Below, one piece after another: positions 114 to 15,092 of a stretch of 64,000 nt of DNA. The notes beneath the pieces are model-generated. The model was not told where the DNA came from. It worked only from the letters and a program-made list of their open reading frames with translations, and did not search any database. Each line of letters begins with the position of its first letter. Within the stretch, counting starts at the first letter, position 1. The position numbers were made by a program, and so were the translations under genes. This DNA is from Clostridia bacterium (GTDB taxonomy: Bacteria > Bacillota > Clostridia > Oscillospirales > CAG-272): contig JAFUOQ010000015.1 in the NCBI GenBank assembly GCA_017472695.1, positions 388-64,387 on the forward strand, in the 5' to 3' direction.

Positions 114-338
114 TTAGTTGTTTGTTGTACCGCTTAAGTTGTTGAAATCGATACCAACAGAAATGTCTTGTGAACCATCTGCATTTGTTTTTGTAGTGGT
201 GTTAGCTGTATCAACAGCGCCGATTGCACCTGAGAACAAAACATTAGCAATACCCAAGCTTGTTTCCATTATATCCATGATGTCTTCTGTTTCAAGCTTT
301 ACCATTTCGCAAATTGGGGAAACGTATTTCATCATCAT
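114..338 (-). CDS. Small hypothetical protein (72-74 aa): acidic leader-like N-terminus, Gly/Ala-rich hydrophobic core, Thr/Asn-rich tail, no signal peptide
   Basis: ORF has an AAGGAG RBS (341-346). Spacing favours the 2nd or 3rd ATG (335 or 332). It has its own consensus promoter and terminator. Confidence 0.6.
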   Translation of the reverse strand: MMMKYVSPICEMVKLETEDIMDIMETSLGIANVLFSGAIGAVDTANTTTKTNADGSQDISVGIDFNNLSGTTNN

Positions 339-536: not shown

Positions 537-1607
537 CTATCCTACGATACCGCTTCTTTCAACACCCTCTACAATACGTCTTTGTAGGAATACATATGCA
601 ACAATAAGAGGTAGCGCGATAAGAATTGAGGCTGTACCCAAAACCATTGCACTGTAAGCAGAGGAAATGTTTTGTGTCTCATTTTTAAGCATAGCAGCTA
701 TCGATTCTGGCGTAGCTGCGATATGCTTCATAAATACAAACGCAGAGTTTTCTCTTGCAAGGAATATTGATGTATAGAAATCATCTGTCCATTGCCATGA
801 AAATGCGAATATAAATACGGTAATGAGCATTGGTATTGAAATTGGAATAATTATGCTAAAGAATGTGCGAAGAGTGCTTGAACCATCAACAAATGCAGAC
901 TCCTCAAGCTCATCTGGTACACCCTTAAAGAACTGGCGTAGCATAAATATAAATAATCCATTTTTAAAGCCTAATCCAAATATTGAAAGAACATATAGCG
1001 GAATTAAGCTATCCGAGAAGCCATATCCGTTCTCAAACATACCGAACCAATCCTGAAGTGGCTTCAATATAAAGCTTATTGGATTGAGCGTTGTTTCAAA
1101 CATTGTGATTTGTCTAAAGAATGCATCCATAGAGTTCTTTAATGCTTCCTGTGGAACCATCAAGGTAAGAATAACAAATGCGAACACTATCGAGTTGCCC
1201 TTAAATTTGAACTTTGCAAGTCCATATGCAACTAATGCACAAACTAATGTCTGGATAAGCGCAACACTGAGTGATACTAAAAACGTAGTCAAGAACGCTT
1301 GAATATAATTGTTTTCACTAAGCACGAACCAATATTGATCAATTGTTGGATTCTTTGTTATTAGTATAACTGTAGCATCCTTAACGTCGCTTATTGACAT
1401 TATAGATGATAAAATCTTTTTGATGTACGGATAAAGTATTATGAATGTAATACCTATCAAAAGTACTGTTCTAAAAATTACAAATACTACCTTATATAAG
1501 AAGTTAGCAGATAAAAACTTTTGTTTTAATCTTTCCTTGAGAGGAGCTCTTTCAAAATCAACCTTGATTTTTTTCTTGGATTCTCTTTTTACTTTAACTG
1601 TATCCAT
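537..1607 (-). CDS. Carbohydrate-type ABC transporter permease (MalG-like), second pair
   Basis: Multi-TM protein with EAA loop ...DELEESAFVDGSSTLRTFFSIIIPISIPML... Confidence 0.85.
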   Translation of the reverse strand: MDTVKVKRESKKKIKVDFERAPLKERLKQKFLSANFLYKVVFVIFRTVLLIGITFIILYPYIKKILSSIMSISDVKDATVILITKNPTIDQYWFVLSENNYIQAFLTTFLVSLSVALIQTLVCALVAYGLAKFKFKGNSIVFAFVILTLMVPQEALKNSMDAFFRQITMFETTLNPISFILKPLQDWFGMFENGYGFSDSLIPLYVLSIFGLGFKNGLFIFMLRQFFKGVPDELEESAFVDGSSTLRTFFSIIIPISIPMLITVFIFAFSWQWTDDFYTSIFLARENSAFVFMKHIAATPESIAAMLKNETQNISSAYSAMVLGTASILIALPLIVAYVFLQRRIVEGVERSGIVG

Positions 1608-1619
1608 CTTGGCACCTCC

Positions 1620-2750
1620 TTAGTCTCTTCTTTGGTAGAATACTACCGTCTTCATTAGTAATGCGACAACTACTATAACCACAAGAACTAGAAGTATGTA
1701 TACCCAAATACCTGCACTGAAGTTACCCGGGTTAGCTGATCCAAACAAGCCACCATAACCTCCAAGACCTTGCATTACACGGTTGTCTGCGGCAGTAAAG
1801 AGGTCAACGACTGTATAAATAGCATTTACAAGAATCATTGGGCTTATCATTGGCAATGTAATCTTCCAGAAGGTCTCCCAAGCGGTAGCACCCTCCATTT
1901 GACAGGACTCATAAATCGATGGTGAAATCGATTGCAAGCCTGAAAGGAAAATAAGCATTTGTACACCTGAACGGCTAACAATTTTGAAAATGTTGTTAAT
2001 AAGAGACGTTACGACCTCGACCAGACTAAACTCACCTATCTTCAGATTGACATTGGATAGTAGCATTTCAACGTCAAGTGATGAAATGAGTCCTCCGTCG
2101 CTTGCTCCTGTGTTATCGTCAATAGCTCCGCTTTCTTCCATTGAGCCTGCATCAATTTGAGCATCGATAGCATCTATAATACCTGTTGAAAGAATAACTG
2201 GTAAGAAGAATACTGCACGGAAGAATGTACGTCCTGTCATTTTTTGGTTAAGAATAATCGCCATAAAGAGTGAGAATATTACGATTGCTGGAATCTGCAA
2301 TACTAGGTCACCCATAGCATCTAATACTGTTGTTGTAAAACGTCCATCGTCGAAGAATACTAATTTATAAGCATCAAAGCTGAGATAATCATAATTACCC
2401 TTTGAGCCACGGAATGAAACCTCAATCGATTTAATTACCATAGGTAAATAAATACCTATAATACCAAGAACAAATGGCATACAGAAGAGCCAACCAGAAA
2501 GTGCTTTTTTGCCAGTCAATGACAAGCCTTTTTTCTTGCTTACATATGGTGTGTAAGCTGGTCCTTCCGCTGTTTCTTTTGTTTTTACTTGTTCAGCAAC
2601 TACCGGTGCCTCCTCAAGTGGCTCTTGTGGTTGCTTAGCCACTGGCTTTGTCACCTTTTTAGGAGTTGCTAAATACACCTTTTGCGTGCTTGCGCCCGTG
2701 GTGGAAGAACCTAGTGTAACCTTGTTTTGTGTTTCATTTGCATTTTTCAT
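1620..2750 (-). CDS. Carbohydrate-type ABC transporter permease (MalF-like), second pair, with an ~85-aa low-complexity N-terminal tail
   Basis: EAA loop ...IYESCQMEGATAWETFWKITLPMISPMIL...; 6 predicted TM segments; K/P/E/T-rich N-terminus. Confidence 0.85.
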   Translation of the reverse strand: MKNANETQNKVTLGSSTTGASTQKVYLATPKKVTKPVAKQPQEPLEEAPVVAEQVKTKETAEGPAYTPYVSKKKGLSLTGKKALSGWLFCMPFVLGIIGIYLPMVIKSIEVSFRGSKGNYDYLSFDAYKLVFFDDGRFTTTVLDAMGDLVLQIPAIVIFSLFMAIILNQKMTGRTFFRAVFFLPVILSTGIIDAIDAQIDAGSMEESGAIDDNTGASDGGLISSLDVEMLLSNVNLKIGEFSLVEVVTSLINNIFKIVSRSGVQMLIFLSGLQSISPSIYESCQMEGATAWETFWKITLPMISPMILVNAIYTVVDLFTAADNRVMQGLGGYGGLFGSANPGNFSAGIWVYILLVLVVIVVVALLMKTVVFYQRRD

Positions 2751-5629
2751 TTAACACCAGCCTCCTTTACACTATATTCTTCAAATCCAAGAGCTGGGAC
2801 TACTATTGGTTCGCCCCCAAATTCAACAATTACATCTTGGCTGTTGTAGTTGAGGATAAAGCCCTCTCCACCCTCGTAAACAACGAGAACAACCAAAGAA
2901 TTATTTGTTTTTGTGCCATCAAGATAAGTTACTGCGCAATCTTCATCCTCATCGTTTAGGAATCTATGATCTTCAATATATTTGTCCTGCTTATCCTTCA
3001 TAGCGTTGTTATAAATTGTATAGTTTTCTACTATAGAATTCTTTAAGAAATCATAGCTTACTGAATAATATTTATTGTAATCAGAGTCAAATTTGAGCTC
3101 TTCAACATTTTGCTTTGCCAATGTGTAGTAAAGTGTAGCTCCGTTTTCAATAGCCTTTAAGAGCATATAGTCCTCGTCACCCTCCATATTGAGCGCATTT
3201 CCTGCGAACTCAACAGAGCCGTGGTAAACCATACCATAGAAAGGAACGCTTTCACTTGCTTTTATGTATTTACTACTATCAAGTGGAGCACTAAGTACGC
3301 CTGAAGCATATGGAACTGAATATGCATTTCCTGTGTCAACAATCAAATCAAATCTTTCTTCACCAAGCTTTGTAGCAAGCTTCATAAACTCAACAGTTTC
3401 ATCCTTTGAATCCTCTCTTGAGAAGTAGTTATCTACATCAAAGTCGGAGTTCAAATCAGAGCCGAGTGCTCTTGTTGCAAGTGTTTTTATTTTTGTACCC
3501 TCTATTGAATCAGTAAAGCTTTCAAAGAGTGTAATAAATGATGCGCTTGATACTGCAACACCACTTGTACGCTCAAAGGTTTGAGTTGCGGCATAATATA
3601 CACGCTTTGTTGTATATCTGTCGTCAAGTGTTTTTACTGCGTGCTTGCTATTTGAATAATCGCTAAACCACTTTGTCGCATATGAATATGAAAAATCAAC
3701 ATCAATTGCTACATCGTAATTGTTTTTGTCAGCATCGTCAAGCAAATCAGAAAGACCATCCTTGCCACCGAGAACCTTTTGCCACTTAATCTCTGTTGGA
3801 TAAGTGGAAGCAAGACCACCATTATAGAAGCCCTTCAAAATGAAGGAATTATTGTAAATTCCTGCTTTAGAAAGCTCCTCTTGCATTTCAATTATATCAC
3901 TGAAGGTTGTAAGCTCCTTATCTACAGTTACTGGGAATGAGAACATTTGCTCCTTTACCTTAATAGAACCAAACACCTCAAGGAAGAGCTTTGTATTCTC
4001 TTCAACATCTGTTATCTTTTTAAGTGAGCCGTTTTCAGTCAAATAATCTCTATATAGCTTTGCCATACCGACATAGCTTGTATCATATGTATTTTCAAAG
4101 CCATATTTATCGTCTGTCAAAAGCTTATAATAAATTCTATAATCGCCTTCATAGTAGTTATCTGTAACTACTGTAATTTTAGTAGAGGATGAAGCTCCTC
4201 CTGAAAATGCATCCGCAAGGTCATAGGTATCGTACTCTGCATAGTTAAATGAAGCATATGCAGAAATGTGATATCTTTCAGCGTTTGCAGTAATGGAAGC
4301 GAGTGCATCACCATCCTCAATAATTGCAAAGTATCCTTTATCGTATTCACCACTGGTGTTTACCATTCCGAATACAGGCATTGTATATGGTTCTGTATTT
4401 TTATTTGTGATTTGATAATAAGCATAGTCTGAGCCATATAGCGAGGATGTAAGCTTACCCGTTTGCTTTTTAGCAATCAAATCCTCAAATCTAACAATTG
4501 TTCCACTTCCATCAGGAATAAAGATGTAACCATTGTCGTATTGCTTATTTCCATTCTCATCTAGGTCGGAATCCAATGCGGCTGATGCAAAATAAGGAAG
4601 AATTGTAATATTTGCAAGACAGTAAAGTGATTTATCATACTCTACAGTGCTTGCGTCAAGATTAACTATAAGACCATCGTTTGCAAGCTTATAGTCAACT
4701 GTAAACTTGAAGTTAGGATATTCCTTTTCTACATAGTTTTCTCTGTCTTTTGCTTCGTCCCATAGCTCTTCGCTGTCTATCTCGAATTGAGTCTTTTCTC
4801 CTATTGGCTTTCCGTCTTCATCTTTTTCAGAAAGAACAAAGTATTCTGGATTAGCTGCAATCAATTTTGCTTCCAAAACCTCCATACTATAGCTTGATGC
4901 ATATATACCAGGCTTTAGGAAAATGAAAGGAGTTTCAAGACAAATTGGATGTTCATTTATCATTTCTTGACGAAGTGTCAAGCTAGGATTGCTCAAAAGC
5001 TTATTTTCAATATACACTTGGTCAGGGTCGTAGATGTTAAAGTTTTCCTTTACAAGCTTCTCTATCTGTGTGCTGGATTGTCCGCCCTCGCTCATTGCTT
5101 TATAGAAATCTTCAAGAGCAATCTTTAGAGGTACTGCGTAATCACGTCTTTCCTCACCGATAGAATAATCAACCCTTATTCCTTCACTTGTTTTGCTAAT
5201 CTTACCTTGGTTGTACGCAAAGCAATCATTATAGCTATACAATGTTGACATTGCATCCTTACCAGATGTGATTTTAAAGTAATTAACGTATACCTGTGAC
5301 AAACGATAGCCTTTATCTGCTGTATTTGTTGCAGGGAAAACGTCAGATACGTTATATGGGTTTGAGAGTGTTATTTCTCCTGTTACCTTGTTTTTAATTG
5401 CCATTTCACCCGATTTGTTGTCAACGTAGAGCTGGAGAATACCATCGCCCTCGCCCTCCTTATCGGGATCATCACTAGTCATAATATATGTCATTGTTGC
5501 TAGCTTTTCTTCGGCATTTGCAAAGGTGTCAGACATATGGTCAACGGTTGATGCTCCAACCGCCATAGGAACAAGTAATGCACCCACTAATAATACGGCA
5601 AGAAGAGCCGCTAATATTCTATTTTTCAT
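2747..5629 (-). CDS. Large secreted protein of unknown function (960 aa)
   Basis: Type I signal peptide MKNRILAALLAVLLVGALLVPMAVGA/S with no further TM segments. 4-nt overlap with the downstream permease. From memory it may correspond to the DUF5696 family (unverified). Confidence 0.75.
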   Translation of the reverse strand: MKNRILAALLAVLLVGALLVPMAVGASTVDHMSDTFANAEEKLATMTYIMTSDDPDKEGEGDGILQLYVDNKSGEMAIKNKVTGEITLSNPYNVSDVFPATNTADKGYRLSQVYVNYFKITSGKDAMSTLYSYNDCFAYNQGKISKTSEGIRVDYSIGEERRDYAVPLKIALEDFYKAMSEGGQSSTQIEKLVKENFNIYDPDQVYIENKLLSNPSLTLRQEMINEHPICLETPFIFLKPGIYASSYSMEVLEAKLIAANPEYFVLSEKDEDGKPIGEKTQFEIDSEELWDEAKDRENYVEKEYPNFKFTVDYKLANDGLIVNLDASTVEYDKSLYCLANITILPYFASAALDSDLDENGNKQYDNGYIFIPDGSGTIVRFEDLIAKKQTGKLTSSLYGSDYAYYQITNKNTEPYTMPVFGMVNTSGEYDKGYFAIIEDGDALASITANAERYHISAYASFNYAEYDTYDLADAFSGGASSSTKITVVTDNYYEGDYRIYYKLLTDDKYGFENTYDTSYVGMAKLYRDYLTENGSLKKITDVEENTKLFLEVFGSIKVKEQMFSFPVTVDKELTTFSDIIEMQEELSKAGIYNNSFILKGFYNGGLASTYPTEIKWQKVLGGKDGLSDLLDDADKNNYDVAIDVDFSYSYATKWFSDYSNSKHAVKTLDDRYTTKRVYYAATQTFERTSGVAVSSASFITLFESFTDSIEGTKIKTLATRALGSDLNSDFDVDNYFSREDSKDETVEFMKLATKLGEERFDLIVDTGNAYSVPYASGVLSAPLDSSKYIKASESVPFYGMVYHGSVEFAGNALNMEGDEDYMLLKAIENGATLYYTLAKQNVEELKFDSDYNKYYSVSYDFLKNSIVENYTIYNNAMKDKQDKYIEDHRFLNDEDEDCAVTYLDGTKTNNSLVVLVVYEGGEGFILNYNSQDVIVEFGGEPIVVPALGFEEYSVKEAGVK

Positions 5630-5640
5630 ATTTGGCCCTC

Positions 5641-7920
5641 CTACCTGTAGCTTAACTCACTCGTAATAGTTGATACAAATGAGGTCATCTTTGAAATAAG
5701 TGTAATAAATAGTACAACAATAAACATGATAATAACCATACCTGCTATTGTAGCTACTACTGTTACTATGTTTTTACCCATTGAATAATCGTGTGTAACC
5801 TGCATACCGATGATGATAAGGAATGCCATCCAAATGTATGCAACGGAAATGATAAGTGTAGGAATTTGTGATTCTGTTCCTACCAATACCTGTGTTAAAA
5901 GTGTAGATACTATCACAAGAATTGGAAGTGGGAATAATGCATATGCTGTTGCAATAAAGATATCCTTAAAGCTTCCCTCTCCATCGAAAAGTGTTGTGAA
6001 GCACCAGTTTGAAATTACCCAAAGGAAGAATGGAATGAGAACTGTTGCCGCTTGTGAAATTACTGTTGCGGTAGAGCCCTGTGGCTTGTAATAGTAGCCT
6101 TGACCTATACCCTGATAGTAGAAGGCAACTACTGTTATAATAAGGAAGATAATTGCTGCTCTCATTGAGCCACGCTTTTCCTTTTTCAAATCCCAATATC
6201 CATCAAATGGATGGAATATGATATGGAAGCCGTAGGTTAACTCCTCCTTGAGTGAGCGCTTGCCACCCTTGGTAGCCGCAGCCTTATTAACCTTACCTGC
6301 GTATCCGAACACCTTAACAACTACAAAGAGCAATACTATAATTCCAATAACCAGGAATATGAAGTATCTTTCCATAATATCTGCACGGATAGCCTTAAAT
6401 ACTGTTGCATAGTTCTCTGTATCGTATGCATTTTCAAAGTACGCAAGAGCTGTATCAAGATCGTCCCTGTCCTTTGCATTACGATAAATTGCCTTACCCA
6501 TTTCAACATACGCGGTGTCGAAGTTGTTATTTCTTGCTAATACATCCTCCCACGCACCTGTCGCTTTGTCAAATTCGCCATCGTTCTGATATCCAATAGC
6601 GGTTGCCAAAACCTGGGCATATTCTGTTTGTCTATATACTATTAATGAAGCGTTTGAACGGTCAAGAACTATAATCTTTGTTGTTTCCTTATCGACAACT
6701 GCTCCGGTTTTTTCATCCATAGCCTTTTGATTATAAATCTGATATGTAATTGCCTGACCAGCGCCATTATCTGCTTTGGTGACTTGACCAAATTGCTCAC
6801 CAACATCACCAAAGATGTATAGTAGGTTACCCAAACGGTCGTAGGTATAAATCTTCGCACGCTTGTTGTCAAGGATTGACCAAACGCCATCAGGACCACT
6901 TGTTACGTCGATTATCTTTGATACACCGCTTGGTGCTCCCTCATTTGCTGCGGTAACCTTTGCGTTAAGCTCAACCGCTACCTCGCCAGCTGGAGCAAAG
7001 AAGCCTGTACGTTGCATAATGTCTGTACCACCCGCGTTAAGAAGCTTAACTGGAGAGTAGTCTGTAACCTTGGATGTAAGCTGTGTCAACTGTGAGTTCT
7101 CATCATCAGCGTTGTACATAATAGTACCATAAACAAAGTCGCCATAGGTTCTATCAAGCTCAAGGTTTGAATAAGTTGTTGGCACGTTTGTAAACTCAAG
7201 TGTTGTCCATGGGTTTACAGTTTGAATAATTGCTTGAAGCGCTGAAACACTAACCTTTGGCGCACCAATAAAGTTAATAAATTCGCCTTCGTTTGTGAGA
7301 ACTATGATACCCTCTGTTGTTCCATCGGATACAACGTACATTCTACCATGCTTATCTACTACACAGCTGATAGGAGTGTATGCACCGGTATCTGATGAGA
7401 AGTTGATTTGAGGCTCCTTAAAGGTTTTCTCAAATACATATGCACCTTCTCCATAAACTTCTTCATTTATTGTGAATTTAATAATTCTCTTATTAAGCTT
7501 ATCACAAACATAAAGTCCTTTGTAATTGCCTTCACTTACTGTAAATGTGCTTGTAGGTGTATTAAAGGTATCCTCTACTCCATCACCATTTACAAAGTTT
7601 TGAATTACAGCTTTGAAATTGTAATTTGAGTCAACTACTACAATTCTGTTGTTGTTTGAGTCAGTAATATAAACATTACCGAAATCGTCTGCTTCTACGT
7701 CTGTTGGGTTATCCATTGCAACTCCGCCAAGATTATCTAGACCGATAGTTGCAGAGTTTACTGGCGCAACTCCGTCAGGCACGTATGCATCAGGAGATTT
7801 AAGAACCTCTCCATTAATTGAATATGTATATGTGTCATAAGGAGTAGCAGCCATTGCGCAAGGAGCAAGAAGCATTATAAAAGCAAACATGAATGCAGCT
7901 ATTTTTGCTATTTTCTTCAT
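5641..7920 (-). CDS. Fusion protein: signal peptide, NHL-like beta-propeller, helical/TPR-like region, TM anchor, C-terminal Yip1-type 5-TM domain (759 aa)
   Basis: NHL-like blades (DDFGNVYITDSNNNRIVVVD, GLYVCDKLNKRIIKF, DKHGRMYVVSDG, DGVWSILDNKRAKIYTYD). C-terminal HPFDGYWDLKKEKRGS followed by a hydrophobic multi-TM region typical of Yip1/DUF1282-like proteins. Confidence 0.7.
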   Translation of the reverse strand: MKKIAKIAAFMFAFIMLLAPCAMAATPYDTYTYSINGEVLKSPDAYVPDGVAPVNSATIGLDNLGGVAMDNPTDVEADDFGNVYITDSNNNRIVVVDSNYNFKAVIQNFVNGDGVEDTFNTPTSTFTVSEGNYKGLYVCDKLNKRIIKFTINEEVYGEGAYVFEKTFKEPQINFSSDTGAYTPISCVVDKHGRMYVVSDGTTEGIIVLTNEGEFINFIGAPKVSVSALQAIIQTVNPWTTLEFTNVPTTYSNLELDRTYGDFVYGTIMYNADDENSQLTQLTSKVTDYSPVKLLNAGGTDIMQRTGFFAPAGEVAVELNAKVTAANEGAPSGVSKIIDVTSGPDGVWSILDNKRAKIYTYDRLGNLLYIFGDVGEQFGQVTKADNGAGQAITYQIYNQKAMDEKTGAVVDKETTKIIVLDRSNASLIVYRQTEYAQVLATAIGYQNDGEFDKATGAWEDVLARNNNFDTAYVEMGKAIYRNAKDRDDLDTALAYFENAYDTENYATVFKAIRADIMERYFIFLVIGIIVLLFVVVKVFGYAGKVNKAAATKGGKRSLKEELTYGFHIIFHPFDGYWDLKKEKRGSMRAAIIFLIITVVAFYYQGIGQGYYYKPQGSTATVISQAATVLIPFFLWVISNWCFTTLFDGEGSFKDIFIATAYALFPLPILVIVSTLLTQVLVGTESQIPTLIISVAYIWMAFLIIIGMQVTHDYSMGKNIVTVVATIAGMVIIMFIVVLFITLISKMTSFVSTITSELSYR

Positions 7921-7928
7921 AATACCTC

Positions 7929-8801
7929 CTAATCCTTCATACCACTAGATGCCATTGTTTCAATAATGTTACTTTGTGAAATAACAAATACCAAAATTGG
8001 CACAAGCATCATAATTACCGAACCAGCAGCGGACGCACCTGCACGGGCGATACCACCAGCAGTAATTTGTCCAATTGCATAGTTGAGTGTCTTTAGCTGT
8101 TCACTATAAATGTAAGCCGAAGCACCTGTGTTCCAAAGTCCTTGGAACGAATAAATAATAAGTGTTAACCAAGCAGGCTTAACCATTGGCATAGCAATTA
8201 CCCAGAAGGTTCTAAACTCGCTACAGCCATCAAGACGCGCACTCTCAAGCACGGAATCTGAAATTGAGGAGTCCATAAACTGCTTCATTAGGTAAAGTCC
8301 CATAGATGACCCCCATGCAGGTATAATAAGTGCAAATGGGTTATCCATAAGTCCGAGTGTTGATAGTGTTAGGAAGTTCGCTATTGCTGTTACAGTTGAT
8401 GTAAACATAAGTGAACGTTGAATAATCCAGAACACGCCACGTCTGCCGGGGAAAGGAATTTTAGAAACTGCATAAGCTGCAAGTGAGCTAAATAGCAAGT
8501 TTCCAAAGGTACCTGCGGCTGTAATAAATACTGTGTTAAATATGTATCTTGAGAAAGGTACCCAAGAATCACTTAAAAGTGTAAATAAATCGGAAAAGTT
8601 CTTTAATGTTGGGTTTACAACATAGAATCTTGGAGGGAACATCCAAAGCTCGTCAAGAGGCTTCAACGATTGCATTACAACATATACCATTGGCAAGAAC
8701 ATAAATGCTCCCATAATAGCAAGGAAGATAAATATTCCTGCGTCTCCACCTTTAGAACGGTTGAGGACAACTTGATGATTTCTAACTCTCATTTTTTGCA
8801 T
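7929..8801 (-). CDS. Carbohydrate-type ABC transporter permease (MalG-like), first pair
   Basis: EAA loop ...VLESARLDGCSEFRTFWVIAMPMVKPAW.... Start moved to the ATG at 8801 (MQKMRV...), preceded by AAGGTGGG; the longer ORF to 8849 overlaps the upstream gene. Confidence 0.85.
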   Translation of the reverse strand: MQKMRVRNHQVVLNRSKGGDAGIFIFLAIMGAFMFLPMVYVVMQSLKPLDELWMFPPRFYVVNPTLKNFSDLFTLLSDSWVPFSRYIFNTVFITAAGTFGNLLFSSLAAYAVSKIPFPGRRGVFWIIQRSLMFTSTVTAIANFLTLSTLGLMDNPFALIIPAWGSSMGLYLMKQFMDSSISDSVLESARLDGCSEFRTFWVIAMPMVKPAWLTLIIYSFQGLWNTGASAYIYSEQLKTLNYAIGQITAGGIARAGASAAGSVIMMLVPILVFVISQSNIIETMASSGMKD

Positions 8802-8802
8802 A

Positions 8803-9840
8803 TCATTGTCCCACCTTCGAAAGCATTTTATTAACCAGAACGTTTGCACCCATCATTACAAGGAAGAGTACGAACGCAATAGCGGAAGCATATCCCACTT
8901 CCCAACGTTGGTTACCGTAGTCCTCCAAGCAGTGCATAATCGTATGACACGAATAGTTAACTGATGGGAATCCACAAAGCGAGGTTACGACACCACCGAA
9001 GCCGAACGCACCAGTAATTGACATTACCGCACCGAACATTAGCTGTGGTCGCATCATTGGCAGGGTAATAAACCATAGCTCCTGCCATCTGTTTTTGATA
9101 CCGTCAACTGCGGCTGCCTCAAACAAGCTCTTATCAACCGTTTGAAGACCTGCAATAAACGATAGGAACGCTGTACCGAGTGACATCCATAGTGCAACTA
9201 CGATACAAAGTGTCATTGCGTATTTCTCGTCATAGAACCAAAGAATTGGCGCATCTATGATGTTGAGCTTCATTAGCGTACCATTAACCCAGCCCTGTCC
9301 GTCATTTGAGAAAAGTGTACCCCAAATGAGATATACTGAGCCAGAAATTGATGGTGCATAGAATATAAGTGTTACTATTGCTCTGATTCTTGGTGATAGC
9401 TCATTAATGAACCATGCAACAAGGAATGAAAGAATATAGGAAACAGGACCTGTAATTGCAGCGAACACGAGTGTGTTTTTACAAGCGAGGAGGAATATAT
9501 CGTCCTCAAAGAATAGTCTTGTATAGTTTTTAATTCCTATAAACATATCCCATTTGAATTCGAGCATATTGAAGTTTGTAAAGCTGAGTACTAGCGATAG
9601 TACAACTGGGAATACAGTAAATAGCAAGAATACAAACATGAATGGTGCTATCATTAGGTACGCAATTTTGTGCCTCTTGATCTCATGCAATGTCCATTGG
9701 AACATTGTCATATCCTTTCTTGCAACTGCCTTCTTTTTATCATTTGATTTTTGTTCTTCTAAAATACTATCGTCATGTACAGCTTCGGCTGTTTCGATAT
9801 TTTCAGCCTTGTTTTGTAAATTTTCTTTACGCTTTGCCAT
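8803..9840 (-). CDS. Carbohydrate-type ABC transporter permease (MalF-like), first pair, with a ~55-aa charged N-terminal tail
   Basis: EAA loop ...LFEAAAVDGIKNRWQELWFITLPMMRPQL...; 6 TM segments. Confidence 0.85.
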   Translation of the reverse strand: MAKRKENLQNKAENIETAEAVHDDSILEEQKSNDKKKAVARKDMTMFQWTLHEIKRHKIAYLMIAPFMFVFLLFTVFPVVLSLVLSFTNFNMLEFKWDMFIGIKNYTRLFFEDDIFLLACKNTLVFAAITGPVSYILSFLVAWFINELSPRIRAIVTLIFYAPSISGSVYLIWGTLFSNDGQGWVNGTLMKLNIIDAPILWFYDEKYAMTLCIVVALWMSLGTAFLSFIAGLQTVDKSLFEAAAVDGIKNRWQELWFITLPMMRPQLMFGAVMSITGAFGFGGVVTSLCGFPSVNYSCHTIMHCLEDYGNQRWEVGYASAIAFVLFLVMMGANVLVNKMLSKVGQ

Positions 9841-9870: not shown

Positions 9871-12800
9871 TTAATTTAAAGCATTATCGGGATTTAGCTT
9901 ATCATACTCTTCTTTTGTGAGCATGCCAAATTCCTCACGTCTTCTCTCAATTTCGGCATTGATTGTTGTAACGTAGCTGAGAAGCGCATCTGATGCGTCC
10001 TCGCCATCGTTATAAGCTGCTAGGAATGCGAAGTTGACATAACGAGCTAAATAGTAGCTACCTGGGTGGTTTGGAACTGCCTCAAGGTTGTTGAACTGGT
10101 CAAGGATGTTTGATTTTTCCTTTGCTGTCCAAGGAAGCTCCTCAAGAGCAATTCTATTTGCGGTTGCAGGTCTTGCTGCAATACCCATGATAGAAACTAC
10201 ACCATTTGAATAGTCTGCTTGGAACTCATGTCCTGTGTACCATTTCATAAATTCCCATGCAGCATCGTCTTTTTTCTGTTGCTCTTTGCTGTTGCCATTA
10301 TCTATCATTACACAGCCTGTAACTGTACCAATAGCATTTCTGTTAATTTGAACATTTCCATTTTCGTCAAGTATTTCATTTCCATTTTCATCAACAACTA
10401 CCTCACCAGGAAGCTTAACAAATGTCCAAAGACCTGAAAGCTCTGATGCGAATACTGCCAATTGGTTACATGTTGTATATGGTGCAATACCGATTGGCAT
10501 TTCGCCTGTACGGAAACGGTTTGCAAAATCATATGTATAAGGAAGTGAATATTGAGTGTAGTAGTTACACATTGTTTCAAATGCGTTAAGAACGCCCTTT
10601 GAATCAAAGTTGATTGTCATACCATTGTTGGAATATGCCTCATGACCATTTTGGTATATAAATGTATATGCATCATTTTGGATACCTAGCTCCATATTAT
10701 TATATTGAAGAATAGGTAGTATTGCGAGCATATCATCCCATGTCTTTGGAACCTCAAGCTCTAGGTTAGCAAATATATCCTCACGGTAGAACATCATTGA
10801 GAATGTAAGTGTGTCTGGTAAAGCATAAAGCTCAATACCAGTATGTCCCTCGTCATTCTTCCAGTTATAGCCATATTTTGCATCATCCAAGCTACTGTTA
10901 GGATTATTTTCGTCTACGAGATAGTGTACCTCTTTAGATGTGCCGTTTGATGTATTAGTTATTGTTGTACCATCCTCTCTCCACAGATAGAGGTCCTCCT
11001 CAACCCATGTATATTCATGGTCAACGCCTTCAATATCTAAAACATTTTCATATCCAAAGTTATAGAGAGTAAGTGGCTCAATAGCAGCCTCTGGGAACTC
11101 GTCTAATATGTTTGTACCATTTTTAATATCCTCGTTAACATATTCGTTGAGAGGTTTTATTGCGTTACGGAGAGCATAGTCAATAATAGTTGTGCTTACC
11201 TCCATTAGCGAAACCTCTGGACCTACGCCAGCAATAATTGATGGAAGTAGTGTTCCTCCCGAAATGAGCTTAATGTTAACTCCGATGTTGATCTTTTCGT
11301 ACTTTGTGGGTTTTCCATTTTCATCCCACTCTACAGCGACCTCGTATTCCTCTGGAGTAAAATTATTTTCAATGAGATTTCTTATGATTTGTGCTTGGTC
11401 ACGACCTGTTACAACCCAAACCTCAATTACTTCGTCGTAATTGCCACCATCTGACTTGCTATCCATTGTATTGTAATCGCCTGCAAATGAAGCGAAGAAC
11501 AGCTTGATTTCAAACCAGATTGCTTCAAAGAAGTTTGCGTCTGCCTTTGGTAGATCATCATCTATTGATTGAACTAGATAATAGTCAACCTGTAGGGGCT
11601 GTGTCTTTGCGCTATTAATCCAGGTACCCAAGGAACCGATTTGTGATTTTAATGTTGCGAGATTTGCAGGAATTTCGGACTCGTCAGTTGCCATCTTTTC
11701 AAGAAGCTGGTAAACCTGCTTAATGGTTGCTGTCTTTTCACCCTCACCAGTACCGCCGTCCTGTGCTTGGTTCTCTGCTATCATATAATTATAAACGCTC
11801 TCAAGGTTTTGTGACTCCAAAAGCATGCTTTCAAGAACGTGTGGCATTACACGTGTGAAGCCATATGAACGGTTAGAGTCAGGGTCTGTACCTGTGAGCT
11901 TTAGAATTTCAAGGTAAGCTTCGTTTATTGCAGTAAGTGAGTTGCTTACCTGTTTAATTTGCTGACCCATTTCGCCAAGAGTTGCCTCAAGCTTTATTTC
12001 ATAGGTTTTGCCTGCTTCAAAATAAAACTCGAACTCTGTTTCGCCATCTCCAAGGAAGCAAGTTTGCCAAGAGCTTGTATATGGGAAACGGCAGTTTGCA
12101 GCCTCTGCAAACGGAACCTCTCCATCAATATATAGCTTTCTTGAAACGTACATACCACTCAATAGAGCTTGCTTATATCTAACAGCTATGGAATAGTAAC
12201 CAGATTCTGGTACTGTAATTTCATAGCTCATCCACTCACCAACGTTTTGCCACTGCTCTTTTCCTGCTGTGTTATACTTAACCGCAGACTCACTTTGTGC
12301 GCCTGTCAATCCACTTGTAATCGCGGAGGTTCTATCGTATACAGGATACATAGTAACAGCGGATACGTTTTCTGGGCCCTCTGCCTCTATTCTATCATCC
12401 TCGTCCAAATCAAGACTTACTCTGTTGTCCTCCATCTTTCCGTAGAGGTCTTCCATTTCCTTCTTGTATTGGCTATAGCTCATCAAGCTTTCTTGTGGGC
12501 GCAAGGTAATAGATTGAATAATGATGCCTTCTCTTTGACCCTCAAGTGAAATTGCATTTTCACCTGGCTTTACATAGAATTCAAATGGATACATTTCATA
12601 TCCGTTTGAATCACTGATAGCATATGTAACCCAGCTTTGGTCCTCCTTAACAGAAGGACGGATGTCGTCACCGCTACCATCTTCCTTTTCGTTCTCAAAG
12701 GTTCGGTTGTTATCATTATCATACTTATAATCGTATTTCCACACCTTTGAAAGCACTAATGAACGTGCTTCGGAAAACGGAATCTCACCGTTTAAGTAAA

Positions 12801-13611
12801 ATATACGTTCGATTGGGTTACTAGTAGGCTTGCTATCACCATCGAGAACATCGTCCTCCATTGCTTGAGCATACTTAATTTCAATTATGTAATTTCCACT
12901 CAAGTATTCAGGAACGTTGAAGGTCCAAGTAACAACACCATTAGAGCCGATGTAAACACCTGCATTGTTACCATCGTCATCCTCTGTGCAAACATTTTGC
13001 TTTACACGACCTGCGTCCTCACCAAGGATAACTACCTTGTTATCAAACTCGTATTCACCATCAAGAAGGCTAAATTGATTATCCTTGCCTGCTTGAGGAT
13101 TCATAACAAGCTCAATTGTTTCAACAAGAGTATAGGTTGTGTCAACTACCTTTTCCCCTATTGTAATTTTGGCTGTTTTTCCTTTAGAGTCTATTACAAG
13201 CTCGATATCCTCAAGATCCTTTGCTGAGCCTGTATAAGTGCCTGCAAGAGAAACATATGTGCTTTGTGAAAAGTTGTTTTTCTTCTGCTTTGCAAGGCTA
13301 TACTCTGTACCGTTATAATCTAAAACGGCAGCCTCTCCACCTGAAACAGTAATTGTACCAACCACTGCTCCTTCGTTGGAGTAGAGCGTCATCTTTCCAG
13401 CCGATGCGTGCTTATCCAAAACGTTTTCCTTGTATTCGTCATAAGACAAGGCGTTAAGAATAGCGCTTACGTCGGAAATTGACGAATTGGAAGACGAGCT
13501 TCCACTTGAGCTACTCACTTTACCGGATGCAAATGCAGACAAGCCCATAGTCGGCACGAGCATCAAAAGGCAAAGTAAAAATGCAAGTAGCTTTTTCGCT
13601 TTCTTTCTCAT
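9871..13611 (-). CDS. Giant (1246 aa) extracellular solute-binding protein fusion: signal peptide, Ser-rich linker, ~700-aa N-terminal extension with two related CBM6/35-like modules, C-terminal family-1 SBP domain
   Basis: Signal peptide ...LSAFA/SG has no lipobox Cys. The internal repeat is visible (YIIEIKYAQ...RIFYLNGEIPFSEA vs YYSIAVRYKQ...RKLYIDGEVPFAEA). The C-terminal ~550 aa has a typical sugar-SBP pattern (...PKTWDDMLAILP...). Confidence 0.8.
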   Translation of the reverse strand: MRKKAKKLLAFLLCLLMLVPTMGLSAFASGKVSSSSGSSSSNSSISDVSAILNALSYDEYKENVLDKHASAGKMTLYSNEGAVVGTITVSGGEAAVLDYNGTEYSLAKQKKNNFSQSTYVSLAGTYTGSAKDLEDIELVIDSKGKTAKITIGEKVVDTTYTLVETIELVMNPQAGKDNQFSLLDGEYEFDNKVVILGEDAGRVKQNVCTEDDDGNNAGVYIGSNGVVTWTFNVPEYLSGNYIIEIKYAQAMEDDVLDGDSKPTSNPIERIFYLNGEIPFSEARSLVLSKVWKYDYKYDNDNNRTFENEKEDGSGDDIRPSVKEDQSWVTYAISDSNGYEMYPFEFYVKPGENAISLEGQREGIIIQSITLRPQESLMSYSQYKKEMEDLYGKMEDNRVSLDLDEDDRIEAEGPENVSAVTMYPVYDRTSAITSGLTGAQSESAVKYNTAGKEQWQNVGEWMSYEITVPESGYYSIAVRYKQALLSGMYVSRKLYIDGEVPFAEAANCRFPYTSSWQTCFLGDGETEFEFYFEAGKTYEIKLEATLGEMGQQIKQVSNSLTAINEAYLEILKLTGTDPDSNRSYGFTRVMPHVLESMLLESQNLESVYNYMIAENQAQDGGTGEGEKTATIKQVYQLLEKMATDESEIPANLATLKSQIGSLGTWINSAKTQPLQVDYYLVQSIDDDLPKADANFFEAIWFEIKLFFASFAGDYNTMDSKSDGGNYDEVIEVWVVTGRDQAQIIRNLIENNFTPEEYEVAVEWDENGKPTKYEKINIGVNIKLISGGTLLPSIIAGVGPEVSLMEVSTTIIDYALRNAIKPLNEYVNEDIKNGTNILDEFPEAAIEPLTLYNFGYENVLDIEGVDHEYTWVEEDLYLWREDGTTITNTSNGTSKEVHYLVDENNPNSSLDDAKYGYNWKNDEGHTGIELYALPDTLTFSMMFYREDIFANLELEVPKTWDDMLAILPILQYNNMELGIQNDAYTFIYQNGHEAYSNNGMTINFDSKGVLNAFETMCNYYTQYSLPYTYDFANRFRTGEMPIGIAPYTTCNQLAVFASELSGLWTFVKLPGEVVVDENGNEILDENGNVQINRNAIGTVTGCVMIDNGNSKEQQKKDDAAWEFMKWYTGHEFQADYSNGVVSIMGIAARPATANRIALEELPWTAKEKSNILDQFNNLEAVPNHPGSYYLARYVNFAFLAAYNDGEDASDALLSYVTTINAEIERRREEFGMLTKEEYDKLNPDNALN

Positions 13612-14132: not shown

Positions 14133-15092
14133 ATGTACTATTTAGGAATCGACCTCGGTGGAACAAACATTGCCGCCGGTATCGTCGACGAAAACTACAA
14201 AATAATTAAGAAAAAGAGTGTACCTACTCTTGCACATAGAGATGGCAAAGAAATCATTAAGGATATGGCAAAGCTTTGTCTTTCACTTCTTGAGGATTGC
14301 GGACTTACCATTAACGATATCGAATACGCTGGAATTGCTTCCCCTGGTACTGCAAATTCAGAAACAGGCATCGTTGAATACGCAAACAATCTTCCTTTTA
14401 AAAACTTCCCTATTGCAGAGCTGCTTAAGGAATATACCGGCGTAAAGAAGGTTCTTATCGAAAACGATGCAAACGCTGCTGCAAAGGCTGAGGCTATTGC
14501 CGGTGTTGCGAAGGGTGCTAAATTTTCCGTTATGATTACACTTGGAACAGGTTTAGGCGGTGGAATTGTTCTTGACGGAAAGGTATATTCAGGCTTTAAC
14601 TTCGCAGGAGCCGAGCTTGGACACATTGTTATTGAAAAGGACGGCAAGCAATGTACCTGTGGCAGACGCGGCTGTTGGGAAACATATAGCTCCGCTACCG
14701 GTCTTACAAATATGACAAAGGAGCATGTTCTCAAGGCTAGAGCCGAGGGACGCAAAACCCTCATTGAGGAGCTTATCAACGGCAATGTTGATAATTGCAA
14801 CGCAAGAGTTGCATTCACCGCTATGAAGCAGGGCGATGCAGTTGGTAAGGAAATTGTTGACGAATATATTTCTTACCTCGCATGTGGAATTGCAAACATA
14901 ATCAATATATTCCAACCAAACGTTCTTTCGATCGGTGGTGGAGTATGCAATGAAAAGGACAATCTTCTCGTTCCACTAAATGAAGCTGTATTTAAGCAAA
15001 CCTACACAAAGGGTGACAAGCAAACCCAAATCAAGATTGCAGAGCTTGGCAACGACGCTGGTATCGTTGGAGCTGCAGTTCTTGGACTTTAA
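14133..15092 (+). CDS. glcK: ROK-family glucokinase
   Basis: N-terminal YLGIDLGGTNIAAG ATP-binding motif; ROK zinc signature CTCGRRGCWETYSS. Confidence 0.85.
   Translation: MYYLGIDLGGTNIAAGIVDENYKIIKKKSVPTLAHRDGKEIIKDMAKLCLSLLEDCGLTINDIEYAGIASPGTANSETGIVEYANNLPFKNFPIAELLKEYTGVKKVLIENDANAAAKAEAIAGVAKGAKFSVMITLGTGLGGGIVLDGKVYSGFNFAGAELGHIVIEKDGKQCTCGRRGCWETYSSATGLTNMTKEHVLKARAEGRKTLIEELINGNVDNCNARVAFTAMKQGDAVGKEIVDEYISYLACGIANIINIFQPNVLSIGGGVCNEKDNLLVPLNEAVFKQTYTKGDKQTQIKIAELGNDAGIVGAAVLGL

Follow-up and report, generated by a model that had tools for sequence, protein, structure and literature searches.

The usual account of an ATP-binding cassette (ABC) sugar importer in Gram-positive bacteria that degrade fibre comprises a binding protein, two permeases and an ATPase that is shared, and the CUT1 importers of Gram-positive polysaccharide utilization loci (gpPULs; Sheridan et al. 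2016, PMC5320581) commonly share an unlinked ATPase of the MsmK/MsmX type. In their canonical form these CUT1 importers have one permease pair and no extra membrane subunits. A membrane protein attached to an ABC system is nevertheless known from the Yip1 family, in which YknW of B. subtilis/B. amyloliquefaciens serves the YknXYZ ABC exporter as a required accessory and is reported to modulate complex assembly (PMC4887032, citing Yamada et al. 2012); in bacteriocin clusters, Yip1 genes recur with ABC triads (PMC10707071). Here we describe a gene whose product joins a propeller ectodomain to a Yip1 domain and which stands, in a constant gene order, between two pairs of ABC permeases. It lies in the window, by which we mean the whole 64,000-nucleotide stretch of DNA analysed, from a Clostridia bacterium of the Oscillospirales (CAG-272; assembly GCA_017472695.1, contig JAFUOQ010000015.1, positions 388 to 64,387). 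In our best reading, this NHL-TPR-Yip1 protein serves as a constant accessory subunit in a cassette for glycan uptake that is conserved among Gram-positive bacteria. The gene and the parts of its product are as follows.

5641..7920, minus strand: gene for the NHL-TPR-TM-Yip1 protein (TM, transmembrane), 759 codons and 759 amino acids (aa), from the open reading frame (ORF) and its translation with Pfam matches to Yip1 and NHL; its full-length homologues are called 'YIP1 family protein'.
7849..7920, minus strand: type I signal peptide, residues 1-24 (…CAMA/ATPY), from hydropathy and the conservation of A24, P27 and Y28.
6628..7842, minus strand: six-bladed NHL beta-propeller ectodomain, residues ~27-431, from Pfam NHL, profile matches in the Protein Data Bank (PDB), the AlphaFold2 model and Foldseek.
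6421..6627, minus strand: about two membrane-proximal TPR-like helical hairpins, residues 432-500, from matches to consensus TPR proteins in the PDB, the TPR Pfam families of homologues, four model helices and conserved residues.
6307..6372, minus strand: single TM anchor helix, residues ~517-538, from hydropathy and from split-form propeller-TPR proteins, which end with this anchor and a short basic tail.
6226..6306, minus strand: basic cytoplasmic linker, predicted, residues 539-565, the point at which the gene is split in other lineages, from the count of lysines and arginines (K/R) and the split genes.
5644..6225, minus strand: Yip1 domain with five predicted TM helices, residues 566-759, from Pfam and conservation over 99 sequences, its topology being drawn from hydropathy.

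An earlier reading of the window, made by a model from the letters and their translated ORFs and referred to here as the sequence-only reading, had outlined most of this architecture. Its signal peptide agrees with hydropathy and with the AxA/A cleavage site, which is kept in 30 homologues with A24, P27 and Y28 invariant, while hydropathy analysis of the whole 759-aa protein gives six TM segments in addition to the signal peptide. The AlphaFold2 model of the complete chain (pLDDT 74.8, pTM 0.65) begins with a signal helix and a propeller at residues ~30-431; four TPR-like helices (433-498) come next, and then a long helix (501-550) that leads to a bundle of helices (557-758). That the ectodomain is an NHL propeller, as had been proposed, is borne out by this model and by three kinds of search which together identify the six-bladed form: Pfam recognizes one NHL repeat (PF01436), which spans residues 71-95 and scores 25.3 bits where 20 is the cut-off, a profile built from 30 homologues matches the NHL propellers Pizza6, PknD and TRIM71 in the PDB, and the top Foldseek matches of the model are six-bladed NHL domains (E 1e-11, TM-score ~0.7 on the target). 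The helical segment that follows is also present and is, more exactly than the 'helical repeat' first suggested, a set of about two TPR-like hairpins. The same profile matches consensus TPR proteins in the PDB at positions 410-469 with E values down to 2.4e-18; the 759-aa protein itself gives no Pfam TPR match at E ≤ 0.1, and many of its homologues carry TPR Pfam matches. An alignment of 111 sequences shows W457, N464, N466 and A470 of the TPR region to be conserved.

The same alignment bears on the question of whether the propeller might itself be catalytic, for example as a lyase, lactonase or esterase acting on a glycan, with the Yip1 domain as a mere anchor. Many homologues have a precomputed Pfam match of the SGL/gluconolactonase type (PF08450) and are called 'gluconolactonase', and virginiamycin B lyase, a propeller lyase, is found among the weaker Foldseek matches. 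The conserved positions of the ectodomain, however, are NHL-blade residues of a structural kind (D, G, Y, N and R) together with TPR-helix residues, and in the 111 sequences the propeller presents no conserved His/Cys/Glu cluster and no metal- or acid/base-type cluster suggestive of catalysis. A simple anchor, moreover, would not need the conserved five-helix bundle with predicted cytoplasmic motifs that is described next, and we consider a catalytic propeller improbable.

The C-terminal domain matches Pfam Yip1 (PF04893) at residues 566-735 over nearly the whole profile (positions 2-171 of 173; E 6.9e-18, 65.5 bits against a curated cut-off of 28.6), with 68.9 bits in the search of the organism's own genome. 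Five hydrophobic segments lie within residues 588-739, after the basic linker, and the model has helices at 586-758, a predicted topology in keeping with the five-helix Yip1-like domain of the sequence-only reading and with the five TM helices of the family. The TM helix and short basic linker which that reading placed before this domain are likewise seen in the hydropathy analysis, where the 49-residue stretch between TM segments 1 and 2 (residues 539-587) contains 11 K/R and is, by the positive-inside rule, expected to be cytoplasmic. The predicted topology therefore places the propeller and TPR hairpins outside the cell, from which one helix would lead inward to the basic linker in the cytoplasm and the Yip1 bundle would run from inside to outside. 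Eukaryotic Yip1/YIPF Golgi proteins share PF04893, the five TM helices and a cytoplasmic N-terminal region (PMC6682643), although they act in Rab-linked vesicle traffic, a wholly different setting, and no Rab GTPases occur here. Across 99 sequences the conserved features of the domain are the motifs HPxDxxWDL (570-578) before TM1 and NW..T..GEG (638-649) at the end of TM2, H710 after TM4, and E755 and R759 at the C-terminus. The two motifs and H710 are predicted to lie on the cytoplasmic face.

The gene belongs to a row of seven co-directional genes separated by gaps of 8-30 nt or joined by small overlaps, the other six being the following.

9871..13611, minus strand: giant binding protein, 1246 aa, with a ~690-aa N-terminal extension and a substrate-binding protein (SBP) core, from Pfam SBP_bac_8 and SBP_bac_1 at 897-1136; first gene of the cassette.
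8803..9840, minus strand: permease A1 (MalF-like), from Pfam BPD_transp_1 and synteny.
7929..8849, minus strand: permease B1 (MalG-like), from Pfam BPD_transp_1 and synteny.
2747..5629, minus strand: DUF5696 protein, 960 aa, whose N-terminal helix is a signal or an anchor, from Pfam (E 3.5e-127); adjacent in every locus.
1620..2750, minus strand: permease A2 (MalF-like), part of the minimal unit, from Pfam BPD_transp_1; always after DUF5696.
537..1607, minus strand: permease B2 (MalG-like), part of the minimal unit, from Pfam BPD_transp_1 and synteny.

All four flanking genes that the sequence-only reading took for ABC permeases match BPD_transp_1, and EAA-like loops are readable in their translations; with the SBP_bac_1 and SBP_bac_8 matches of the 1246-aa protein, this fits a CUT1-type importer. 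In the giant binding protein the Pfam SBP match is limited to the C-terminal part, and there is a weak match to CBM35. With the listed GTG start at 8849, permease B1 would share 47 nt with the upstream permease, and the true start is probably the ATG at 8801 (Met17, MQKMRV...). A scan for promoters and terminators gave counts equal to the shuffled expectation, so that the row is called an operon from its spacing and synteny alone.

A word-indexed search found at least 1447 clusters of homologues at 90% identity, all full length, many of them called 'YIP1 family protein' and derived from metagenome-assembled genomes of Clostridia, and when the search was made exhaustive, at E ≤ 1e-30, it yielded 966 clusters at 50% identity, most of them 690-780 aa long and aligned over their whole length. 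The carriers comprise at least 583 species-representative genomes and range over rumen and gut Clostridia, Paenibacillus and Caldicellulosiruptor, among Gram-positive bacteria of gut and soil. From these carriers 80 related loci with 40-84% identity were kept, in which gene order was judged as far as the contig reaches, and every one presents the order SBP-permA1-permB1-NHLYip1-DUF5696-permA2-permB2. Sampling that started from DUF5696 led to the same result: among 401 genomes of the phylum, 35 had DUF5696 above the cut-off, and the 20 regions fetched from diverse families all contain the cassette, permuted in three and reduced to its second half in two. When the same 401 genomes were searched with the Yip1 part, the strong matches fell exactly in the genomes with DUF5696 (32/32). 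Five genomes have seven or more copies of the NHLYip1 unit, and some of these are gut Clostridia of 2-3 Mb; in 11 of 11 further paralogues, taken from two multi-copy genomes, NHLYip1, DUF5696, permA2 and permB2 remain together. In each of the 111 loci examined (80 + 20 + 11), the NHL-Yip1 gene is thus accompanied by DUF5696 and a MalF/MalG-type permease pair as far as the contig reaches. The architecture is common yet always beside transporters, contrary to the outcome, common and mostly away from transporters, that the sequence-only reading had itself named as speaking against it. The link to the neighbouring permeases proposed there, though not the docking, gating or organising of them that it suggested, thereby gains strong support from fixed synteny and co-occurrence, although its tightest partners, DUF5696 and the second permease pair, had been missed. 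The multi-copy expansion in gut Clostridia has the look of polysaccharide utilization loci.

Eight of the 11 further paralogues are without the giant SBP and the first permease pair, and in each of four paralogue loci checked an ordinary SBP of 440-465 aa directly follows the four genes. Because these are the parts that the paralogues keep, the minimal unit consists of the NHL-TPR-Yip1 protein, DUF5696, one permease pair and, usually, a binding protein; the full form adds the giant binding protein and the second permease pair. A tally of 124 flanking genes returned 13 ROK genes, 10 ordinary SBPs and, for the rest, mostly housekeeping genes, with no conserved regulator or enzyme beside the cassette. 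Some copies adjoin genes for GH10, GH3, GH43, apiosidase-like or PcRGLX-like carbohydrate-active enzymes (CAZymes), while the copy in the window has neither a CAZyme neighbour nor a second SBP. So variable a set of CAZymes makes a role common to many substrates likelier than one specific chemical step, which further argues against the catalytic propeller considered above.

The two halves of the protein also occur as separate genes. In eight of the 20 diverse loci the propeller-TPR-anchor portion (~500-540 aa) and the Yip1 portion (~210-230 aa) are separate, adjacent genes, and the cut falls in the predicted cytoplasmic linker. Paenibacillus, Cohnella and Gorillibacterium have the split form, under the annotation 'NHL repeat-containing protein' or 'gluconolactonase', and Caldicellulosiruptor bescii, C. 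owensensis and C. danielii have the fused one. The fission suggests two cooperating modules, an anchored ectodomain and a membrane bundle. Conservation differs between the parts of the cassette: in close, middle and far loci, identity to the window is 87/66/48% for permA1/B1 and 72/53/32% for Yip1, followed by permA2/B2 and TPR and then by NHL, SBP and DUF5696 (57-60/39-40/26-29%). In this respect the membrane part resembles the permeases, whereas the ectodomain resembles the remaining surface proteins.

These observations also bear on the possibility that the protein is a regulatory subunit and not a scaffold, in which the propeller-TPR ectodomain would sense a glycan, the loaded binding protein or DUF5696, and the Yip1 bundle would switch the permeases or the shared ATPase. 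The kinase PknD, one of the PDB matches, uses its NHL propeller as an extracellular sensor domain; the most conserved Yip1 residues are on the predicted cytoplasmic face; control may be built into the cassette given that no regulator gene is conserved beside it; and YknW is reported to modulate the assembly of its transporter (PMC4887032). The protein has, on the other hand, no recognisable output domain, trans-membrane signalling through a Yip1 bundle has no known example, and the propeller's rate of evolution, which equals that of the SBP and DUF5696, would be just as natural for a scaffold that faces the substrate. We therefore regard a sensor or gate as unlikely, if somewhat less so than a catalytic propeller.

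The most closely comparable described protein, YknW, is like the protein described here a polytopic membrane protein of the Yip1 family whose gene lies in an ABC transporter operon (PMC4887032). It shows that the statement of the sequence-only reading that bacterial Yip1 domains are without an assigned function was too strong. The accompanying statement, that no characterised example of the architecture is known, stands for the exact domain combination, for which, as for the cassette as a whole, we found no characterised example or published description in the literature searched; it does not stand for a bacterial Yip1 protein serving an ABC transporter, of which YknW is a characterised case. 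YknW differs, however, in being a stand-alone protein without an ectodomain, whereas here Yip1 is fused or adjacent to the propeller-TPR ectodomain. It works with an exporter of the MacB type, which includes a membrane fusion protein (MFP) and protects against a peptide toxin, whereas here the partners are MalF/MalG-type importer permeases and an SBP, and Pfam finds no MFP or MacB-type gene in the cassette.

Stand-alone Yip1 genes of the phylum (185-245 aa) lie directly downstream of a Peptidase_S49 (sppA) gene in 6/6 sampled loci. This is the position occupied in B. subtilis by SppI (YteJ), which binds and inhibits SppA (PMC7568657). SppI was considered as a further Yip1 precedent and dropped, as the paper assigns it to the RDD family. 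By analogy with these cases, bacterial Yip1 proteins look like partners of other membrane machines, and it might be asked whether the protein is an assembly factor that stands outside the working complex, with Yip1 helping to insert, stabilise or pair the unusual long-tailed permeases, or to export or anchor DUF5696. Such a role would agree with the description of YknW as modulating complex assembly (PMC4887032) and with the stand-alone Yip1 genes after sppA, which may be general partners of membrane complexes. A chaperone, though, would not need a large conserved ectodomain, and the tight gene spacing and single copy per cassette suggest a stoichiometric subunit; we give an assembly factor little credence.

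The constant partner DUF5696 is a candidate for what the ectodomain might hold. No paper on DUF5696 was found in the literature, and PDB sequence searches with the protein gave either nothing or only 5wzn at E 0.01. The AlphaFold2 model of DUF5696 (pLDDT 86.3, pTM 0.83), by contrast with the sequence search, retrieves by Foldseek 5opq/8rzk (ZgGH129) at E 1e-25 and 5wzn (NagBb) at E 1e-20, and then GH101, GH36 and GH31 structures, so that the modelled fold is GH129/GH101-like, with an N-terminal beta-sandwich and a (beta/alpha)8 barrel. In 92 DUF5696 sequences D729 is conserved in 91% and E828 in 99%, making both candidates for catalytic roles, and D373, D401, H803 and H888 are also conserved; there is no conserved acid 30-45 residues after D729, the expected distance. 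Alignment of the DUF5696 profile with three Pfam-GH129 proteins by hhalign covered only 40 C-terminal columns, and Pfam-GH129 proteins fetched from genomes barely match the GH129 entries of the PDB. Pfam-GH129 proteins of other genomes give weak matches to the C-terminus of the DUF5696 profile (E 2.3e-8). Weak DUF5696 matches to 590-aa proteins were set aside as uninformative, the one that was read being a GH13-type amylase by motif.

Taken with the fixed gene order, the modelled fold leads us to propose that the NHL-TPR-Yip1 protein is a membrane adaptor which would tie the GH129-like protein to the ABC translocon and may do the same for the binding protein, a proposal to which we assign an even chance. 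The Yip1 bundle of five helices, against which the anchor would pack as a sixth, would lie in the membrane beside the permeases, and its conserved face, predicted to be cytoplasmic, would contact the cytoplasmic side of the transporter through permease loops or tails or through the ATPase. Just outside the membrane, the TPR hairpins and the propeller would hold the GH129-like protein, perhaps together with the binding protein, at the mouth of the translocon, where fragments of captured glycans could be handed directly to uptake. Several points weigh against this adaptor. Synteny speaks for shared function and not for contact, and the precedent of YknW concerns a MacB-type exporter and not a type I importer. 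The topology of the NHL-Yip1 protein comes from hydropathy and the positive-inside rule alone, and the Yip1 part of the AlphaFold2 model is of modest confidence (pLDDT 50-80). DUF5696, for all the conservation of D729 and E828, may not be catalytically active, and its profile could not be aligned to GH129 beyond the C-terminus. DUF5696 and the giant SBP, finally, each have an N-terminal hydrophobic helix which may be an uncleaved anchor, in which case a tether may be unneeded.

A more far-reaching version of the adaptor would make the cassette a new type of Gram-positive machine that processes glycans at the surface and imports them. One or two ABC translocons would be bound in a stable supercomplex with the GH129-like protein, the propeller-TPR ectodomain and the Yip1 bundle, as the equivalent at the cytoplasmic membrane of the SusCD utilisome, and the Yip1 fold would serve as a general docking module for bacterial membrane machines, among them ABC exporters, importers and perhaps SppA. 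This we put forward tentatively, as rather doubtful. To the Sus-like utilisome of Bacteroidota, in which SusC/D work with surface glycan-binding proteins and a surface hydrolase, the likeness is one of function and goes no further: both are multi-copy cassettes that bring together a transporter, a protein of glycosidase fold, a helical-repeat protein and the binding of glycans at the surface, whereas the components are unrelated and an outer-membrane TonB-dependent transporter stands in place of the ABC importers of the cytoplasmic membrane.

The cassette generally comes without an ATPase gene of its own. A MalK-type ATPase was found in or beside it in one of 100 loci and in none of the other 99, and five other carrier genomes each have one unlinked MalK-type ATPase gene, so that an unlinked ATPase of the MsmK type probably powers the cassette. 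The organism's own assembly (1.78 Mb, 90.65% complete) contains no MalK/MsmK-type ATPase, its best match being a PotA-like gene (C30:95243-96532) with its own PotB/C; since the five other carriers each have one such gene, it probably lies in the ~9% of the genome that the assembly lacks. No ordinary CUT1 SBP was found in the 1.78-Mb assembly, and no CUT1-like permeases turned up in it besides the four of the cassette, which suggests that the cassette may be the organism's main sugar gateway.

Two further genes border the cassette in the window. Directly downstream lies a 74-codon ORF (114-338, minus strand) without a signal peptide, which has a perfect TTGACA-17-TATAAT promoter with TG at 380-408 and a terminator with a 10-bp stem at 77-100. 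Upstream, and divergent from the cassette, is a gene for a ROK-family protein of 319 aa (14133-15092, plus strand), which is of glucokinase size and has no match to a Pfam DNA-binding domain.

Compared with the gpPUL CUT1 importers (Sheridan et al. 2016, PMC5320581), the cassette shares the SBP, MalF/MalG-type permeases with EAA loops, the lack of an in-locus ATPase and the CAZymes beside many copies, while the propeller-Yip1 protein and its GH129-like partner are constant additions, usually joined by a second permease pair and the giant binding protein. One Caldicellulosiruptor genome has the order giantSBP-perm-perm-NHLYip1-DUF5696-perm-perm-SBP-SBP, followed by a GH43/CBM enzyme. A locus that has already entered the literature, the xylan degradation locus of C. 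saccharolyticus, has CUT1 genes Csac_2412-2414 and Csac_2417-2419, whose transcripts respond to xylan-rich biomass, and Csac_2415 and Csac_2416 are neither listed nor discussed (PMC5658599). Its layout of an SBP, two permeases, two unlisted genes, two permeases and an SBP (3+2+3), next to GH10 and GH43 xylanases, is so similar that it is probably the same cassette, and from this layout we infer that Csac_2415 and Csac_2416 are the orthologues of DUF5696 and NHL-Yip1. Published transcriptomes thus probably already cover an orthologue of the cassette.

Hundreds of species carry a version of the importer with two extra fixed parts, apparently unstudied. If the NHL-TPR-Yip1 protein and the GH129-like protein do form a complex with the permeases, this would change the view of how glycans are captured and taken up in Firmicutes, would give bacterial Yip1 domains a second defined role, and would explain the two genes skipped in published analyses of the Caldicellulosiruptor xylan locus.

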